Shown here: positions 7,814 through 64,000 of the stretch, piece after piece
How the letters are laid out: every line of letters begins with the position of its first letter
Numbering within the stretch: the stretch's first letter is position 1
Assembly (NCBI GenBank): GCA_963741065.1
Contig: CAVUGV010000018.1
Span: forward strand, 44,733-108,732
Length of the DNA: 64,000 nucleotides
Source: an uncultured Verrucomicrobiae bacterium
GTDB taxonomy: Bacteria > Verrucomicrobiota > Verrucomicrobiia > Chthoniobacterales > UBA10450
Reading direction: 5' to 3'
The notes under the pieces: generated by a model
The model's database searches: none
What the model saw: only the letters and a program-made list of their open reading frames with translations
Told to the model about the DNA's origin: nothing
Position numbers and translations under genes: made by a program

Positions 7814-8800
7814 TTGCCTGCATGGAGGGACTCAATGCAGGCGCAGGAAATCTTCGAGATTCTCCACAAGTGGGGGATCCACACGCTTGGGCAGCTGGCG
7901 GCGTTGGATAAGGAGCAGCTGGAAGCGCGACTTGGCCCGGAAGCAAGCCGAATGTGGGAGCGCGCCAACGGGCGATCCATTCGAGTTCTCAAACTGGTTC
8001 GACCGCCGGAGTCGTTCGAGGAGAGCTTCGAATTCGAGCACGAGATCGAAACAGCCGAGCCGCTCCTTTTCATGCTCCGCCGTTTTCTGGAGCAGCTCAC
8101 GCTGCGGCTGACTGGAATCTATCTCGTAACAAAAGAACTGACGCTGCAAATTACGTTCGCGAATTCACGCCAAGACGAACCCGTCGTGGCGGGCAAACAG
8201 TTTTATGAGCGCGTTTTCAAAATTCCGCAGCCGACTAACGATGTCGATCTTCTCTTTCGCATGCTCCAGACGCACTTGGAGAATTTTCGATCGAAACATC
8301 CGATCGTGGCAGTCGCGCTGAGTGCGCAACCGATTAAACCCGCCAGCGAACAATTCGGATTATTTGAAACGACACTGCGCAATCCGCATCAACTATCGGA
8401 AACGCTCGCGCGTTTGACCGCCCTGCTTGGAAGCGAACGCGTCGGCACGCCAGTCATCGAGGAAACGCATCGGCCAGATGCATTTCGCATGGAACCGTTT
8501 TCGTGGGATGGGCTTCCAGCCCATTCAATCGGCAGGATGCCGATGCCACGTCCAGCTCTGCGAAGATTTCGGCCCGCAGTGTCTGCATCAGTTTTAGTGG
8601 ATGGAGACACCCGGGCGCATCTTTGCAGCGCAGAAATTTGCGGGAAAGTCATCGAGCAACATGGGCCGTATTTGATTTCTGGAAATTGGTGGGGCGAAAA
8701 ATCCTGGGCGCGCGCCGAATGGGATGTGCAGCTGCAGGATGGCGAGCTCGTTCGATGTCCACGAAACGGAGCGAACTTGGGAAATGGACGGCATCTATGA
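7814..8800 (+). CDS. imuB: ImuB-like protein lacking the N-terminal Y-family polymerase-like part
   Basis: 328-aa ORF. ..IHTLGQLAALDKEQLEARLGPEASRMWERANG.. resembles the HhH/little-finger region of ImuB. Directly precedes dnaE2. About 180 N-terminal residues expected from full-length ImuB are absent. Confidence 0.65.
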   Translation: MPAWRDSMQAQEIFEILHKWGIHTLGQLAALDKEQLEARLGPEASRMWERANGRSIRVLKLVRPPESFEESFEFEHEIETAEPLLFMLRRFLEQLTLRLTGIYLVTKELTLQITFANSRQDEPVVAGKQFYERVFKIPQPTNDVDLLFRMLQTHLENFRSKHPIVAVALSAQPIKPASEQFGLFETTLRNPHQLSETLARLTALLGSERVGTPVIEETHRPDAFRMEPFSWDGLPAHSIGRMPMPRPALRRFRPAVSASVLVDGDTRAHLCSAEICGKVIEQHGPYLISGNWWGEKSWARAEWDVQLQDGELVRCPRNGANLGNGRHL

Positions 8801-43152: not shown

Positions 43153-45190
43153 ATGAATCCAAATAGCCGAAGTCGTTGCGTGCTGGTGTGCACTGGTTTT
43201 ATCGGACTCTTCAGCATCTTTTCATTTCGTCTGATTTATCTGCAGGCAATAAAGCACGATGAATACGCCGGCCTTGCTGCTGAAAAAAACGTTTACAAGC
43301 AAATCATCCATGCAGAGCGGGGCATGATTCTCGACGCGAACAACGAAGTCCTCGCGCACAACATTCCTGTGGAAACCGTGGTCGCCGATGCAACGCATTT
43401 TAACAACCGGCAAGCGATCGTTGCTCTCGTAAGCCACGAACTTGGCATCCCGTCCGGGGAGGTCGCGGAAAAATTAGACAGCGAGCGCCGTTATATCGTG
43501 ATCAAGCGTGAAGTGCCCGCGGCTACGGCAAACGCGCTGCGTCAGAAACTTCGCGCGGGCAATTTGCGCGGAATTTATTTCGAGCACGACGCCACGCGCA
43601 TCTATCCAAACGGCTCCATGCTTTGTCATGTCATCGGATTCACCGACTTCGATCGTCACGGCATCCAAGGCGTGGAAGCCTCGATGGAGTGAATACCTTC
43701 ACGGGCAGGACGGTTATCGTTTCATCGAGCACAACCGGGCCGGACAAGAGATCGTACCCTACCGGGGGCAGGAGCGCGCTCCGCGCGACGGCTACCAAGT
43801 CCATCTGACCGTCGATCTTGGTTTGCAGAATATCGTCGAGAATGAAATCGACGCCGCCATGGCGCAATATTCGCCGCAAAAAGCCACCATTATTCTGATG
43901 CGGCCGCAGACAGGGGAAATCCTGGCAATGGCCAATCGGCCGAATTTTGATTTGAACCTCCGCTCGGAGGCCCGGCCAGAGCAGATGAAAAACCGGGCGA
44001 TCATCGACATGATGGAGCCGGGTTCCACCTTCAAGATCGTCGCGGCCGCCGCCGCTCTCAATGAACGCAAGGTGCGGCCTGATTCGTCGATTTTTTGTGA
44101 GAACGGTCTCTGGAATTTCGGCGGCGCCGCTCTGCACGATCATCGCGCGTTTTCGAATTTAAGTGTCCGCGAGATTCTCATCAAATCGAGCAACATCGGC
44201 GCGGCCAAACTCGCCCTCACTGTGGGCGACCAAAAGTTTTACGAATACATTCGACGCTTCGGATTCGGCGAGCGCACGGGAATTGAACTGCCTGGCGAGA
44301 TCAACGGATTGATTCGGCCTCCGAAATCCTGGAGCAAAATCTCGATCACACGTATTCCGATGGGGCACGAGATCGGGGTGACGCCACTGCAAATGACGGT
44401 GGCAATGGCGACGATTGCCAACGGCGGCAAGTTGATCATGCCGCGCATGGTGAAATCGATCACTACATCGGAGGGCAAAAGCATCAGTTCACTTTCTCCG
44501 GTGGTGCTGCGTCAGGTTATTTCCTCTGAAACCGCCAAAGAAATTGGTGATGCGCTCCGAGGCGTCGTTAGCGACAGCGGCACAGCCGCCGCCGCGGCCG
44601 TGCCAGGTTTTACCATTGCTGGAAAAACCGGAACCGCGCAGAAAGTTAATCCCCGAGGCGGATATGAAGAGGGAAAGTACGTCGTTTCTTTCGCCGGCTA
44701 CCTTCCGGCCGAGCATCCTGAGTTTGTCGGTCTCGTGGTGCTCGATGATGCGCACACGAGCAAACCGGAGTTGAATTACGGCGGGCTGGTAGCAGGGCCG
44801 ATCTTTTCCCGTCTTGCGGAGAAGGCCGCCCGCTATCTTGATCTTGAGCCGCATGAGGAGATTCGCAAGGCGCTTCCTCGTGGAGCGCGTCGAAAAACCG
44901 CCGCCAGCAGAGCGAGCCCGCAAGACTGCGGCGGCGGAACGAATCGCCTTAACCAATGCCGCACGCCATTGAATGCCTCGCCGCGGCATGTTGAAACCTC
45001 ATGCAGCTCAAGACTCTCCTCGCAGCGACTCCAGTTCGCCAGGTCATCGGGCCACTTGATCGCCCAGTGGAAAACATCGCGTATGACTCGCGGCGAGTGC
45101 AAAGGAACAGCTTGTTCGCGGCATTGCGGGGCGAGAAAACCGATGGCCATCAATTCATTGGTCAAGCCATCGACAAAGGCGCGTCGGTGA
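43153..45190 (+). CDS. ftsI: peptidoglycan D,D-transpeptidase FtsI (PBP3); frame break at 43510-43690; 3' end uncertain (as-read ORF overlaps murE by 190 nt)
   Basis: TM plus dimerisation domain (..ERGMILDANNEVLA..), transpeptidase motifs STFK (about 44030), SSN (about 44190), KTGTA (about 44625). Confidence 0.85.
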
Positions 45191-52140: not shown

Positions 52141-53238
52141 ATGAATGCAGTGATTGCATGCGGAGGAACCGGCGGCCATCTTTTCCCCGGCATCGCTGTG
52201 GCGGAAGTGCTGCACGATCGCGGCCACGAAGTGATGCTGCTCATTTCCGAGAAGGATATTGACGCTCTGGCGCTTTCGGGTCGCACAAATTTTCGAGTCG
52301 AAAAACTACCCAGCATTGGGCTGCCTTCGGCATTTTCTCCAGCATTCTTCGGATTCATTCGCCGCTTTTACGAAAGCTTGTCACTTTGCCGGTCTCTTTA
52401 CCGTAAATTCAAGCCTCAGGTAGTCCTCGGCATGGGCGGATTCACTTCCACTGCGCCGGTGCTGGCGGGACGGATACGCGGAATTGCCACCTTCATTCAC
52501 GAATCAAACGCCATTCCCGGAAAGGCAAACCGACTGACAGCGCGGGTAGTGAATGCCGTCATGCTCGGCTTCAAGGAATGCGCGCCCTTTTTTCCAAAAA
52601 CGCACACGGAAGTCACCGGCACGCCGGTCCGGACCGAACTGGTGCGTTTGGATCGGAAAGTTGCGCGCCAAAAACTTGGGCTACACGAAGATCTTCCGAC
52701 GTTGCTTGTGATGGGAGGCAGCCAGGGTGCGAGCGGAATTAATCAGGCGCTGATCAAATCGCTGCCATTCCTGCAAGGTGTGCCGCTCCAGGTGATCCAT
52801 CTTTCCGGCGCGCGCGATGAACGGTTGGTCGCAGATAACTATCGCCGCGAAAATATCCCCGCTTACGTCGCCGCTTTTCATCATCGGATGGAAGAAGTGT
52901 ACAGCGCCGCCGATCTCGTTGTCGCGCGAGCAGGCGCGGCCAGCTTGGCTGAGTTCGCAGCTTTTTCATTGCCCGGCATCCTGATTCCGTTTCCCTACGC
53001 CACCAATGATCATCAAACGCGTAACGCAGAAATTTATGCTCGCGCTCAGGCAGCGATTCTCCTCAAGGAGTCAGAGGTCTCTGGCGAATTGCTCGCACGT
53101 AAGATTCGCGAGTTGATCCAGGATCCGCAACTGATTCAGCAAATGGCTGCCAATTGTTCGCGTCTGGCGCCAAAAGATGCAGCTGGGCGCGTAGCAACGA
53201 CGATGGAGAAATACACGAGTCATGAACCCCGCGTTTAA
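52141..53238 (+). CDS. murG: undecaprenyldiphospho-muramoylpentapeptide beta-N-acetylglucosaminyltransferase
   Basis: Intact 365-aa ORF. ..ACGGTGGHLFPG.AVA.., ..GGSQGA.., ..RAGA.S..E.. Confidence 0.93.
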   Translation: MNAVIACGGTGGHLFPGIAVAEVLHDRGHEVMLLISEKDIDALALSGRTNFRVEKLPSIGLPSAFSPAFFGFIRRFYESLSLCRSLYRKFKPQVVLGMGGFTSTAPVLAGRIRGIATFIHESNAIPGKANRLTARVVNAVMLGFKECAPFFPKTHTEVTGTPVRTELVRLDRKVARQKLGLHEDLPTLLVMGGSQGASGINQALIKSLPFLQGVPLQVIHLSGARDERLVADNYRRENIPAYVAAFHHRMEEVYSAADLVVARAGAASLAEFAAFSLPGILIPFPYATNDHQTRNAEIYARAQAAILLKESEVSGELLARKIRELIQDPQLIQQMAANCSRLAPKDAAGRVATTMEKYTSHEPRV

Positions 53239-55552
53239 AGAATGCAGTGCGCCCGCCGATCGCGTCCCACCGCTCGACTTGTCGCACTTTCTGACGCGTG
53301 AACAGCACCGGATCCATCTTATTGGCGTGGCCGGAAGCGGCATGAGTGGCCTCGCTGGGCTTCTGATCGAGCTTGGGCACGCCGTGAGCGGCTCGGACAA
53401 GGCCACTAGTACGGAGACGGAGCGATTGCAGCGGCTAGGCCTGCGGTTTCATGAGCAGCATCGTCCGGAGCATGCGGGCGCCGCCGATCTTGTCGTTTGT
53501 TCCTCCGCAATCAAAGGCGACAATCCGATTCTTGTGGCCAGCCGCGATTCCGGTAAACCGGTCGTGCGTCGCGCGGAAGCTCTGGCTGCAATCATGAGTG
53601 CAAAGCGCGGGGTTGTTATCGCCGGAATGCACGGCAAAACGACTACCTCAGCTATGACTGCACACGTGTTGCGAGAAGGCGGACTCCATCCATCGCATTA
53701 TGTCGGCGCCGAAATTCCGCTTCTCGGAACGAACGCACACTGGGATTGGCGCGGCGAATATTTTGTTGCTGAGGGAGACGAAAGCGACGGCACCCTGCGC
53801 TGCTTTCGTCCCGAGCACTCACTTATTCTGAATATCGAGGAAGAGCACCTGGATTTTTATGCCGATCTGGCTGCGATTGAAAATGTCTTTGGGCAACTCA
53901 TCGATCAAACGAGCGGAACAGTCTTCTACAACATTGACGATCCCAACACGGCTCGATTGTGTGTGAAACGCAACAGCGCTGTCTCTTACGGATTTTCGGA
54001 GAATGCCCGTTATCGCGGCATCAATGTCGAGCTGCGGGACTTCGGCTCGGTTTTTTGCGTTTATCGGCGCGGCCAAAAACTCGGCCAAGCGACCCTTAAT
54101 GTTCCCGGAGAACACAACGTGCACAATGCCCTTGGCGTGATCGCACTCGCCTCCGAGCTTGGAATTCCATTTGAGAAGATTGCGGCTTCCCTCCGTAAAT
54201 TCGAGCACGCGCGGCGCCGGTTTGAGATCAAGTATGAGAGCGATCGTTTTTTGCTTGTTGACGATTACGCGCATCACCCCAGTGAAATTCGCGCTACGTT
54301 GAGGACCGCGCGAGGCACTGGTCGCAAACGGGTGCTGGCCATATTTCAACCTCATCGCTATTCCCGCACGAAAGCGCTGCGCAGCGAGTTTGGCTGTGCC
54401 TTTGATGAGGCTGATCGCGTGGTGGTCACAGATGTTTATCCTGCGAGCGAACCGCCGATCCCTGGAATCAGCGGGCAGACGATTGTCGATGAAATGGTGA
54501 AACACGGTCATCGTGCTGCGAGTTACCAGCCGCGGTTCGAGCACGTGCATTGGGGTATCGGCAACGCGCTCGATGCCGGCGATCTCGTGTTGAGTCTCGG
54601 TGCGGGCAACATTCACGAGCAATTGTCGATCCTGGCTGCGGATCTGGTGATTGCCGAAAAGTTAAAGGCGATTGTCGGCGAAGAAGGCGACGTCCGCCTT
54701 TACGAGCCGCTCTCGAAACACACGACGCTGCGCGTAGGCGGCCCAGCGCAATTTTGGGTCGAGCCGCGAGACGAAAAGGCTTTTTCGGACTTAATTCGGT
54801 TTTGCCGGGATGAAAACCTGCCGCTTTTCGCAATGGGTCGCGGATCGAATCTTCTTGTACGCGACGGTGGCATCCGTGGTGTGGTTGTTCATCCATGCGG
54901 CGGCGATTTCGACAAGATCGAGGTCAACAGCTCCGAAATCACCGCAGGCGCAGGTGTAAAGTTGAGGGAAGTTGCTTATGCGGCGCGCGCGGCAAATCTC
55001 GGCGGACTCGAATGGATGGAAGGAATCCCGGGCGTAATCGGTGGTGGGTTGCGCATGAACGCCGGCGCGATGGGCGCTCAAACTTTCGAGAGCGTGACGC
55101 GCATTCGCTATCTCGACGCCGAAGGCAATCCGCACGCCAGGAATCGAGATCAGCTTGAGGTCTTTTACCGGCGGTTTCCGTTGCTGGAAAATAATTTTGC
55201 GATTTCGGCGACATTCCGCGCGCAGCCGGCCGAGCGTGCAGCGATTGATGGTCGCTTGCGCGAATCGCAGGAGAAACGGCGCACCACTCAGCCAATCGCC
55301 AAGAGTGCAGGCTGTATTTTTAAGAACCCCGGCAGTATTCCGGCAGGAAAACTGGTGGATGAACTGGGGCTGAAGAATTCGCGTGTCGGAAATGCGCGCG
55401 TGTCGGAGGTGCACGGCAATTTCATCGTGAACGATGGCGGCGCGACCGCAGCGGAAATGCTTCAATTGATCGACAAGATACAAAGCGCGGCGCGGGCAAA
55501 ACGTGGGATCGAGTTGGAGACTGAAGTGGAAATTGTCGGGGAGCCTGGATGA
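53222..55552 (+). CDS. murC: fused UDP-N-acetylmuramate--L-alanine ligase / UDP-N-acetylenolpyruvoylglucosamine reductase (MurC-MurB)
   Basis: Single intact 776-aa ORF. MurC part (IGVAGSGMSGLA.., GMHGKTTT, ..DDYAHHP.EI..) to about residue 470. MurB part from ..LSKHTTLRVGGPA.., ..GRGSNLL.., ..AGCIFKNP... Confidence 0.9.
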   Translation: MNPAFKECSAPADRVPPLDLSHFLTREQHRIHLIGVAGSGMSGLAGLLIELGHAVSGSDKATSTETERLQRLGLRFHEQHRPEHAGAADLVVCSSAIKGDNPILVASRDSGKPVVRRAEALAAIMSAKRGVVIAGMHGKTTTSAMTAHVLREGGLHPSHYVGAEIPLLGTNAHWDWRGEYFVAEGDESDGTLRCFRPEHSLILNIEEEHLDFYADLAAIENVFGQLIDQTSGTVFYNIDDPNTARLCVKRNSAVSYGFSENARYRGINVELRDFGSVFCVYRRGQKLGQATLNVPGEHNVHNALGVIALASELGIPFEKIAASLRKFEHARRRFEIKYESDRFLLVDDYAHHPSEIRATLRTARGTGRKRVLAIFQPHRYSRTKALRSEFGCAFDEADRVVVTDVYPASEPPIPGISGQTIVDEMVKHGHRAASYQPRFEHVHWGIGNALDAGDLVLSLGAGNIHEQLSILAADLVIAEKLKAIVGEEGDVRLYEPLSKHTTLRVGGPAQFWVEPRDEKAFSDLIRFCRDENLPLFAMGRGSNLLVRDGGIRGVVVHPCGGDFDKIEVNSSEITAGAGVKLREVAYAARAANLGGLEWMEGIPGVIGGGLRMNAGAMGAQTFESVTRIRYLDAEGNPHARNRDQLEVFYRRFPLLENNFAISATFRAQPAERAAIDGRLRESQEKRRTTQPIAKSAGCIFKNPGSIPAGKLVDELGLKNSRVGNARVSEVHGNFIVNDGGATAAEMLQLIDKIQSAARAKRGIELETEVEIVGEPG

Positions 55553-55553
55553 T

Positions 55554-56514
55554 ATGAAAGATCTGCCAAGAAAAATTGCGGTTCTCATGGGAGGCCCCGG
55601 CTCCGAACGCGAGGTTTCACTTGCCACTGGGCGAGGGGTATCGAAGGCGCTTCGCTCGTTAGGCGCGGAGGTGGCGGAAATCGATGTGCGGGACAAGGAC
55701 TTCCAATTACCCAGCGATGTCGATCTTGCGTTCATTACGATTCACGGAACTTTCGGCGAAGACGGCCAGCTCCAGAGAATTCTGGAACGCCACGGCATCG
55801 CTTATACGGGTGAGGGAGTAAATGGAAGCGAGATCGCTTTCGACAAAATTCGGACAAAAGAAAAATTTCGGGAACATGGAGTAAGGACTCCTCTCTGGGA
55901 AGTAATTCATCCCGGTCAGCGCCCAACGTTTCCGTTGCCGATCGTCGTCAAGGCCCCACGGCAGGGATCAACGGTGGGCGTCGTGATCGTGAAAAGTGAA
56001 GGCGAAATCGAATCCGCGATTAGTGAAGCCGCAAAGTATGGCCGCGAATTGTTGATAGAAAAATTTGTGATCCGGTCGGGAATTGACCATAGGTATCCTC
56101 GGTGACCAAGCCTTGCCCATTCTCGAAATAATTCCCAAGGGCGGCTTTTACGATTTCAACAACAAGTATCCGTTTCTCAATCCGCAGGCGGGCGGCGGAG
56201 CAGAGCATGTTTGCCCGGCGAAGATCGACGCCGCAAAAACAAAAGAGATTCAGGAACTGGCGCTCCGCGCATTTCGCGCAGCGGGTCTGCAGGTGTACGC
56301 GCGCGTAGACGCAATTTTGTCTGAGAACGGGGAGCCGTTTATTCTGGAGATCAATACCATCCCTGGAATGACCGAGGCCAGCCTCCTGCCCGAGGCCGCG
56401 GCTGCAGCCGGGATCAGCTACGTCGATCTTTGCGCCCGCATTATCGCGCTCTCCCGCCTTCGCCAAGGCTACGGCGGGCAAGCTCGCGCCAGAACAGAAG
56501 GGAGCGGGAGATGA
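55554..56514 (+). CDS. ddl: D-alanine--D-alanine ligase (frame break near 56075-56100; C-terminal tail built on repeat D2)
   Basis: ..IAVLMGGPGSEREVSL.., ..HGTFGEDGQLQ.., ..VVKAPRQGSTVGV.., then GRELTIGILGDQALP.., ..ILEINTIPGMT..S..P in the second frame. Confidence 0.88.
56454..56483 (+). repeat. family-D repeat, copy D2, at the ddl 3' end
   Basis: ccgccttcgccaaggctacggcgggcaagc, translated RLRQGYGGQA. Lies beyond the point where Ddl homologs normally end. Confidence 0.7.
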
Positions 56515-62207: not shown

Positions 62208-62213
62208 ATGCCT

Positions 62214-62299
62214 GTCATGCTGAGCGAAGTCGAAGCATCTCTCAATTTAATTCCGCGGCAAATGAGAGTAAGAGATTCCTCGACTTCGCTCGGAATGAC
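62214..62299. repeat. family-B inverted-repeat element, copy B3
   Basis: gtcatgctgagcgaagtcgaagcatctc ... gagattcctcgacttcgctcggaatgac, in the divergent M20-polB intergenic region. Confidence 0.8.
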
Positions 62300-62317
62300 A
62301 CAAAAGTTTGTTGACCG

Positions 62318-64000
62318 ATGGAATTCGAGAAAAACACGCTGCTCTTTGGCGCTGATCCGACCTCGCGCATCGTCGCCATTGAGCTTGGCGAAACCGGGAC
62401 GGTGCGCGTTTATCGCCGGGAAAAAGATGGATCGACAATCGCCGACGTCGAGCCGTTCCATCCCTTTGTCTGGGCCGACAGCGACGTTGTCGATCTCGGC
62501 ATTGAAGCCGAGAAACTTCGCGGCGATCTGAAGTATGGCTGGCTGATCACCGTCGATAGCTGGAAGGAACTCATCGCGTTGCGGAACGGATTGAAGAATG
62601 CCGGGCGCGACTTCTTCGCGTTCACGGATCCGGTGCAGCATTACCTCACAGCCACAGGGCGCACATTATTCAAAGATCTGCCGTTTGAAGAATTGAAACG
62701 AATGCAGATCGAAGTGCTGCAATACGTGGCATCGGCTTCCAGCCGATCCGCTGAGGATCATCGGCAAGATGCCGATCCACGGCTGACAACGACACATCAT
62801 GAGCATTGCAATCTCGGACAACAGCGGCTGGGAAGAATTGCTCATTGTCGATCCAAACAACGTTGAGGAATCCGAACGAAAAGCGCTAAAGCGGCTTACT
62901 GCGCTTATCAAAGAACGCGATCCGGATGTGATCGAAGGTCATGATTTGTTTCGGATTCATCTGCCTTATCTCGTAGCCCGCTCAAAGAAACTGAAAACCA
63001 AGCTCGATTGGGGACGTACCCGCCTTCGCCAAGGCTACGGCGCGGCAGAAGGCGGCGGATTTTTGCGATCGCGGCCATCGCGACTTCAAATCGCGGAGAA
63101 GACCATCGATTATCCGAAGTTCACAATCGGTGGCCGGCATTTCGTTGATACGTTTTTGCTCGCGCAATTCTACGACGTCGGAATGCGTTCTCTTGCCGGT
63201 TTCGAACGGACGGGTGTCGCACGGCATTTCGATCTCTGTGACGACGAACAAATCTCAGCGCTTACAGGCAAAGAACTGGAGCGCGCGTATCTTGAGAATT
63301 CAGAAACGTTCCGGCGACGCGCGTTATGCGGCGTTCGAGAAGCGCGTGCCTTATCAGACCTGCTCAGTGCGAGCTACTTCATCCAGGCGCAAATTTTTCC
63401 GTACAATTACCAGGACGTCATTGTGCGCGGCAACGCCACGCGCATTAACGCGCTTTTCCTGCGCGAATATTTCCGGCAACGCCATTCCATTCCCGAGCTG
63501 CCGATGCCGCGCGCGTTCGAAGGCGGCTACACCGACATCTTCTTCACCGGCGTGGCGCGCAACGTCTGGCACTGCGACATCGCCTCGCTATATCCATCGG
63601 TGATGTTGCAGTTCGCGTGCTTCCCCGCAACGGATCAACTGCAAATTTTCAGGCATCTGCTTACTGACGTGCGCACCTTTCGACTCGAAGCGAAGGCGGA
63701 AATGCGGGCCGAACAAGATCCCGCCAAACAGCATCATCTCCAGGCGTTGCAAAACACGTTCAAGATTTTGCTTAACAGTTTCTATGGTTACCTCGGATTC
63801 GCACAGGGACATTTCGCTGATTTCGACGCAGCTGCGCGCGTCACCCAGATCGGGCGCGATCTGCTGAAGAAGATGATCGAATGGCTTAATGCTCACGGCG
63901 CGCAAGTGGTCGAGGTCGATACCGACGGAATTTATTTCGTGCCACCGGTAGACGTGGCATCGGCTTCCAGCCGATCTTCCTGAAGATCAGCGGCAAGACG
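62318..64000 (+). CDS. family-B DNA polymerase (PolB), 3' end beyond window; frame break near 62795; two palindromic inserts
   Basis: Motif A DIASLYPSVM, motif B KILLNSFYGYLG, motif C VVEVDTDGIYF. ExoI region reads RMQIE[insert]TTT. Confidence 0.85.
62726..62785 (+). repeat. family-C palindromic element, copy C1, in frame inside polB
   Basis: gtggcatcggcttccagccgatccgctgaggatcatcggcaagatgccgatccacggctg, translated VASASSRSAEDHRQDADPRL. Confidence 0.75.
63019..63055 (+). repeat. family-D repeat, copy D4, inside polB
   Basis: cccgccttcgccaaggctacggcgcggcagaaggcgg, translated RLRQGYGAAEGG. Outer CCGCCTTC/GAAGGCGG stem. Confidence 0.7.
63954..64000 (+). repeat. family-C palindromic element, copy C2 (cut by window end), inside polB just after motif C
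   Basis: gtggcatcggcttccagccgatcttcctgaagatcagcggcaagacg. The first 23 nt are identical to C1. Carries an in-frame TGA at 63981-63983. Confidence 0.7.

Follow-up and report, generated by a model that had tools for sequence, protein, structure and literature searches.

A REP dimer probably translated in a loop of an already exonuclease-degenerate B-family DNA polymerase of Candidatus Udaeobacter

Near the end of a 64,000-nucleotide stretch of DNA from an uncultured verrucomicrobial bacterium, a gene for a B-family DNA polymerase (polB) carries a palindromic element close to the ExoI motif of its exonuclease domain, and its reading frame is broken just behind that element. The locus raises the question of whether the element has disabled proofreading, as the initial annotation proposed. 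The stretch, referred to below as the window, corresponds to positions 44733–108732 of contig C18 in a 3.2-Mb genome assembly (G000) that consists of 52 contigs and is 77% complete. The reading that we favour, with a probability of about 0.8, is that the element is a REP dimer translated in a tolerant loop of PolB, that the exonuclease was already degenerate, and that the frame breaks are indel errors of the assembly consensus. The features are collected in Table 1.

Table 1. Features of polB and its repeats, in window coordinates, and of the Y1 transposase genes of the same genome, in contig coordinates
Feature	Position	Strand	Remarks
polB	start 62318	+	end about 630 nt beyond the window
polB, 5' piece	62318–62866	+	frame 0; native to about 62776, out of frame beyond
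polB, middle part	62793–63947	+	frame 1; HIMSIAIS to DTDGIYFVPP
ExoI-equivalent triplet Q130-I-E132	62705–62713	+	D-I-E in canonical relatives
Family-C copy 1	62726–62780	+	55-nt inverted dimer of the GTGG-tagged hairpin unit, in frame as VASASSRSAEDHRQDAD
Deletion 1	62776/62777	+	T missing, GAT[T]CCAC; relative to all other carriers
Deletion 2	about 62793	+	C missing, GAC[C]AC; relative to other carriers and orthologs
ExoII-equivalent GHDLFRIHLP	62937–62966	+	Asn to Asp, catalytic Asp to His
Third insert, 36 nt	63020–63055	+	GTAG-type REP, from a family of 79 copies in the genome; adds RLRQGYGAAEGG, 12 residues, in frame
ExoIII-equivalent FRRRALCGVRE	63309–63341	+	Tyr to Arg, catalytic Asp to Gly
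Polymerase motifs A, B and C	63573–63938	+	canonical; A 63573–63599, B 63762–63791, C 63915–63938
Family-C copy 2	63954–64000	+	57 nt, 10 nt of it beyond the window end; lies after motif C
Insertion	63979/63980	+	extra C, creates TGA 63981–63983 in copy 2
Compensating deletion	about 26 nt beyond the window	+	T missing, GCGC[T]GGC
Intact single-domain Y1 (IS200/RAYT-like) gene	C26: 205564–205902		
Intact single-domain Y1 (IS200/RAYT-like) gene	C35: 24128–24466		
Intact single-domain Y1 (IS200/RAYT-like) gene	C10: 2713–3051		
Intact single-domain Y1 (IS200/RAYT-like) gene	C28: 102682–103026		
Intact single-domain Y1 (IS200/RAYT-like) gene	C36: 150591–150935		

As assembled, polB lies in three pieces: one in frame 0, one in frame 1, and a stretch 3' of the in-frame TGA, behind which 200 more codons are open in the same frame. 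The frame 1 piece spans 62799–63983, in a frame that is open from 62787, and overlaps the end of the frame 0 piece. Pfam detected the domains DNA_pol_B and DNA_pol_B_exo1 in the pieces, and homologs with at least 90% identity carry the names Candidatus Udaeobacter, Chthoniobacterales or Verrucomicrobia. Purifying selection on the gene is strong, with a pairwise dN/dS of about 0.05. Polymerase motifs A, B and C, which the initial annotation had described as intact, are all canonical. The comparator chosen there, E. coli DNA polymerase II, turns out to be remote: in the NCBIfam equivalog test the best Pol II model scores 88 bits, where the cut-off is 570, and in a structure comparison that included PolB of Pyrococcus abyssi the best matches are archaeal-type PolB. 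A ‘GWN’ ExoII motif is the signature of the PolII-like clade, group G1 (PMC7544198); ExoII of the Udaeobacter proteins reads EGH(N/D), without GWN. With the score far under the cut-off and no GWN, an identity as E. coli-type DNA polymerase II was rejected.

The position of the element relative to ExoI is given by ortholog alignments. When a full-length ortholog is aligned with Pyrococcus abyssi PolB, Q-L-E-V-L falls on D-I-E-T-L, the loop following ExoI falls on YHEGEEFGKGP, and the next strand, HVMSIALSD, falls on IIMISYAD. Genomes from two further families in the order to which Udaeobacter belongs (G029 and G036) read DIETF in the ExoI column and keep both NxxxFD and YxxxD; L037 and L039, whose longest ORF is in the wrong frame, were left out of this order-level comparison. 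Both comparisons support the earlier assignment of Gln to the first acidic position of ExoI. They do not support the claim that the palindrome sits inside the motif, as the first nucleotide of the element lies five codons past the ExoI Glu, in a loop of variable length. The residues VLQY, encoded in the 12 nt before the element, are native, because orthologs read Q-x-E-V-L at this point: Q-(I/L/V)-E-V-L was found in 19 of 19 genus orthologs in a first set, and Q-x-E-V-L in 68 of 70 species. On the other side, ‘TTTHH’ comes from reading out of frame a stretch that is (D/N)DHIMS in the orthologs, and the same applies to the five nucleotides 3' of the element. What had been taken for a 72-nt insert parting IE from TTT is thus an element of 55 nt preceded by native sequence.

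The palindrome itself is well founded. Its 21-nt core, GGCATCGGCTTCCAGCCGATC, lies at 62728, at 63956 and, with three mismatches, at 8527, making three occurrences in the window where 0.01 are expected, and copy 1 folds as single-stranded DNA with −19.6 kcal/mol (z = −4.8). The unit of this repeat family, which we call family C, is a 22-nt hairpin, GTGGCATYGGC-WTCYW-GCCRAT, with a stem of 6–7 bp. Units are mostly paired in inverted orientation across a spacer of 1–12 nt, and most of those that appear to be single have a more diverged partner. The complete element is 45–57 nt long, runs from GTGGC to GCCAC, and folds as a single long hairpin. A genome-wide census, which had been suggested together with the palindrome, gave 37 units at no more than one mismatch, compared to 0–11 in 30 congeners and 0 for a reversed-pattern control; family C has therefore expanded in the lineage of G000. 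At up to three mismatches there are 47 units at 36 loci, among them 11 clean dimers, six of which lie deep within stop-free ORFs of 336–1183 codons. Like REPs and REPINs, family C is a stem-loop palindrome with tens of dispersed copies and inverted pairing, while its tag is GTGG(C) and not the GTAG (or CGTC) by which REPs are recognised. Family C has the architecture of a REP dimer, or REPIN.

A different inverted-repeat element lies directly upstream of polB at 62213–62300, with translations such as FLDFARND. It has many matches of 26–32 nt at 97–100% identity in all four congeners searched, and judged by these matches it is a very abundant genus-wide repeat.

We then consider the state of the exonuclease across the genus, for which motifs were surveyed in about 70 Udaeobacter species. 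Gln takes the place of the catalytic ExoI Asp in 68 of 70 species, so that it is not a lesion of G000. In ExoIII, the Tyr has become Arg and the catalytic Asp has become Gly in essentially all species surveyed. The ExoII Asp is retained in about half of the species, and elsewhere is His, Tyr, Asn or Gln. Set against the DEDDy pattern (D-x-E, N-x(2-3)-F/Y-D and Y-x(3)-D), the focal protein departs from it throughout, reading Q-I-E, D-LFR-I-H and R-ALC-G. The proofreading site thus looks catalytically dead, as the initial annotation held, but the part assigned to the insertion falls away, the motif losses being genus-wide. Because the Gln and the ExoIII losses extend across the genus, the death of the exonuclease would predate the insertion and be unrelated to it. 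The loss is also recent and lineage-specific, because the two other families of the order keep all three motifs. Within Udaeobacter the decay is, by the motif survey, stepwise and ongoing. We note that the retained ExoII Asp, for example in HNLFRFDLP, is present in about half of the species (L042–L121) despite the loss of ExoI and ExoIII.

The loop after ExoI (site 1) varies from 4 to 27 residues across 63 species, the minimal form being (A/S)NDE in two of them. A GTAG- or GTGG-tagged hairpin is present in 33 of the 63 loops, and the commonest filler is a single GTAG REP translated as SVAG-GDPG. Family C occupies site 1 in four species (G000, L042, L055, which is the same as G011, and L087), and in the last three it is in frame within an intact polB. 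These copies are regarded as orthologous because they share spacer sequence. Independent insertion in G000 and G011 was considered and rejected in view of the shared spacers, although the protein tree does not group the two as sisters.

A second loop behaves in a similar way. The loop after motif C (site 2, following DTDGIYFVPP) is 11 residues long in 38 of the 68 species and 27–41 residues long in the other 30, and tagged hairpins are found in 22 of the 30 long loops and in none of the 38 short ones. The long loops typically hold GTAG...CTAC dimers belonging to several families, and family C is found here in G000 and L042. The third insert in the focal gene, of the GTAG type, is absent from all homologs examined. 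A GTAG is also present at 63946–63953, 2 nt 5' of family-C copy 2 (CCG-GTAG-AC-GTGGC...), and several congeners have a GTAG REP dimer exactly at this place; the GTAG may be left over from a previous occupant of this loop. An AlphaFold prediction for L042 PolB with both inserts in frame, made from a low-diversity alignment of 53 sequences, has a mean pLDDT of 48.7 and a pTM of 0.30, too poor for judging whether the loops are exposed.

We propose that a REPIN-like mobile repeat inserted in an ancestor into a predicted surface loop behind the ExoI β-strand, where its translation would give a further loop of about 19 residues, in the manner of an RPE. Family C also occupies a second tolerant loop past motif C, and a GTAG-type REP a third. 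Across the genus, the PolB loops would act as insertion hot spots, filled by REP families that differ by species. The insert is not the cause of the loss of proofreading, because the exonuclease site was already degenerate genus-wide, and the real polB is most likely an intact ORF of about 770 residues. The specific idea that fixed loops of the Udaeobacter polymerase, those after ExoI and after motif C, are true REP insertion hot spots, recolonised repeatedly by different families, strikes us as rather unlikely. If true, it would point to insertion that is site-directed, with a REP already in place serving, for instance, as the target or its neighbour, or else to selection for a variable loop, and such selection would be acting on an exonuclease-dead, strongly conserved PolB of very abundant soil bacteria.

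The nearest relative, at a dS of 0.32, is L042 (DATEZD010000213.1), a MEGAHIT-style short-read assembly. Its polB is an intact frame of 766 codons that reads through family C at site 1 and at site 2. Compared with L042 and the other carriers, the G000 gene has four 1-nt indels (Table 1), of which the two deletions at site 1 together shift the frame from 0 to 2 to 1. The 1-nt frame break annotated at about 62795 is therefore present in the assembly, but it is best described as two 1-nt deletions relative to the carriers and not as a single event. A single-indel model for site 1, with an extra base near 62790 (...DPRLTT/HIMS), is allowed by parsimony; it was rejected because the other carriers all read GAT-T-CCAC and the orthologs all read GA(T/C)-CAC.

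Similar lesions occur elsewhere in the assembly. Compared with three intact relatives, ddl (at about 56070), murE (about 46335) and a gene for an ftsI-type PBP (about 43690) each have one frameshift. On contig C30 (103741–111642), rpoC is spread over three frames and rpoB is split in three, with two TGA codons inside it, which amounts to at least four lesions in 7.9 kb, a density equal to that in polB. Overall, the G000 assembly has roughly one frame-breaking indel per 2–6 kb. The dN/dS on the focal gene's own branch is 0.07–0.09, compared to 0.10–0.13 in the intact sister, and the terminal branch of G000 in the PolB protein tree is not long. Exact-product look-ups for the two broken polB ORFs gave no match, and neither did a metagenome pattern scan over the junction that allowed either state at both deletion sites. 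Because essential genes are frameshifted as well, the own-branch dN/dS is not raised, the terminal branch is not long, and the nearest relative carries both elements in frame, we conclude that errors in the assembly consensus are the most likely source of the polB frame breaks and of the TGA in copy 2. A counter-point is that none of the four polB indels is further than about 30 nt from the two elements, a clustering that could reflect real slippage driven by the hairpins. Frameshifts in this genome should not be taken as biology without reads.

That clustering is the main argument for regarding the G000 polB as a real and recent pseudogene, in which slippage promoted by the hairpins produced the frameshifts and the premature stop. 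Hairpins are known hot spots of slippage, all four indels are in or beside the two palindromes, and two of the four are length changes in short homopolymers, which occur in vivo too. We nevertheless consider a pseudogene improbable, since its own-branch dN/dS does not exceed the value of the intact sister, and four neutral indels without any relaxation in substitutions are unlikely; moreover rpoB, rpoC, ddl, murE and ftsI carry like lesions at similar density, and the sister lineage keeps both elements in frame. It is very improbable that the breaks are both real and functional, with the hairpin serving as a phase-variable switch or as a site of programmed frameshifting in an error-prone polymerase. 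This proposal draws on the co-location of indels and hairpin in a polymerase without proofreading motifs, but the repeat tract typical of a contingency locus is missing, the in-frame TGA of copy 2 would end translation anyway, a broken frame is seen in none of 53 full-length loci of relatives, and frameshifts throughout the assembly are the simpler explanation.

We give next to no credence to the original proposal that a 72-nt insert splits ExoI between IE and TTT and, with the change from Asp to Gln, disables proofreading in G000 specifically. The change to Gln is real, and the element is just five codons away from the ExoI Glu. Ortholog alignments refute the split, however, in that Q-x-E-V-L belongs to the native sequence across the genus; ‘TTT’ lies outside the frame of the conserved DHIMS, and ExoIII is lost in essentially all species whether the insert is present or absent. 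A translated REP dimer in a PolB that had already lost its exonuclease, combined with consensus errors, is thus the reading that we carry forward.

REPINs are reportedly inverted pairs of REPs that are mobilised by RAYT (Y1) transposases. Family C resembles them in having two inverted units, a short spacer, a single long hairpin and an expansion within a lineage. A further likeness is that G000 has five or more intact Y1 transposase genes (PF01797); unlike the case for REPINs, none of these is flanked by family C. Typical REPINs also lie outside genes, but about half of the clean family-C copies are intragenic. In the flanks of six Y1 genes in G000, no family-C unit was found within 500 nt. 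A linkage of family C to a RAYT was accordingly rejected, these flanks carrying other repeats. Two of the Y1 genes adjoin other REP-like repeats, such as CCAGCGCTGAAAGCGCGATTCACT. With the genome 77% complete, the RAYT gene cognate to family C may be missing from the assembly. A Y1 transposase would be the means by which family C moves.

Some REPs are intragenic and encode about 20–30 residues, often in genes for replication or repair, those of DNA polymerases among them (Di Nocera, De Gregorio & Rocco 2013, BMC Genomics 14:522, PMC3733652), and the genome with most intragenic GTAG REPs is that of another verrucomicrobium, Opitutus terrae (PMC3733652). Like those repeats, family C is a short tagged palindrome, occurs mostly as inverted dimers, is multicopy and is partly intragenic; the 36-nt third insert and most of the site-1 and site-2 inserts in congeners share the GTAG tag as well. 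Family C differs from them in its GTGG tag, theirs being GTAG or CGTC (PMC3733652). Its host gene is also different, a B-family polymerase of Ca. Udaeobacter, and the loops in this case are refilled by differing families. In Rickettsia, palindromic mobile elements (RPE) are described as lying in frame in housekeeping genes, where they are translated as additional surface segments and the protein is preserved (Ogata et al. 2000, summarised in PMC10969869). Family C is comparable: L042, L055 and L087 carry it in frame within an intact PolB, and six copies lie in long ORFs. It is set apart by size and host, being 45–57 nt long and in a verrucomicrobial host, unlike RPE, which are about 100–150 bp and confined to Rickettsia. 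The translated intragenic REP in PolB is hence an instance of an already known phenomenon, that of intragenic, RPE-like repeats.

A degenerate exonuclease is likewise known from other B-family polymerases: it is described for the archaeal group B2 and the bacterial group G2 (Kazlauskas et al. 2020, PMC7544198), and Pol α and Pol ζ of eukaryotes are further examples. Unlike archaeal B2, the Udaeobacter protein retains both Asp residues of motif C (DTDG), and in two further families of its order all three exonuclease motifs are kept. We describe PolB as a conserved, exonuclease-dead polymerase with presumably translated selfish repeats, rather than as a freshly crippled proofreader. The genus Ca. 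Udaeobacter keeps the polymerase motifs under strong purifying selection beside a degenerate exonuclease, and the conservation of such a PolB hints at a specialised role in repair or translesion synthesis. The two loops, filled by different REP families in different species, provide a natural data set on the tolerance of a polymerase to 8–30 extra residues, and their occupancy across species also shows the turnover of intragenic REPs.

Two further observations concern the cell wall genes of the window. A member of the 79-copy GTAG-type REP family also lies at 56440–56505; it gives Ddl its C-terminal tail (...LRQGYGGQA...), immediately ahead of ftsQ. At 53222–55552, in a single ORF of 776 codons, the domains of MurC (Mur ligase N, M and C) precede those of MurB (FAD_binding_4 and MurB_C). 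Matching single murC-murB ORFs of 792–819 codons are present in three congeners, and the fusion seems to be conserved in Udaeobacter.
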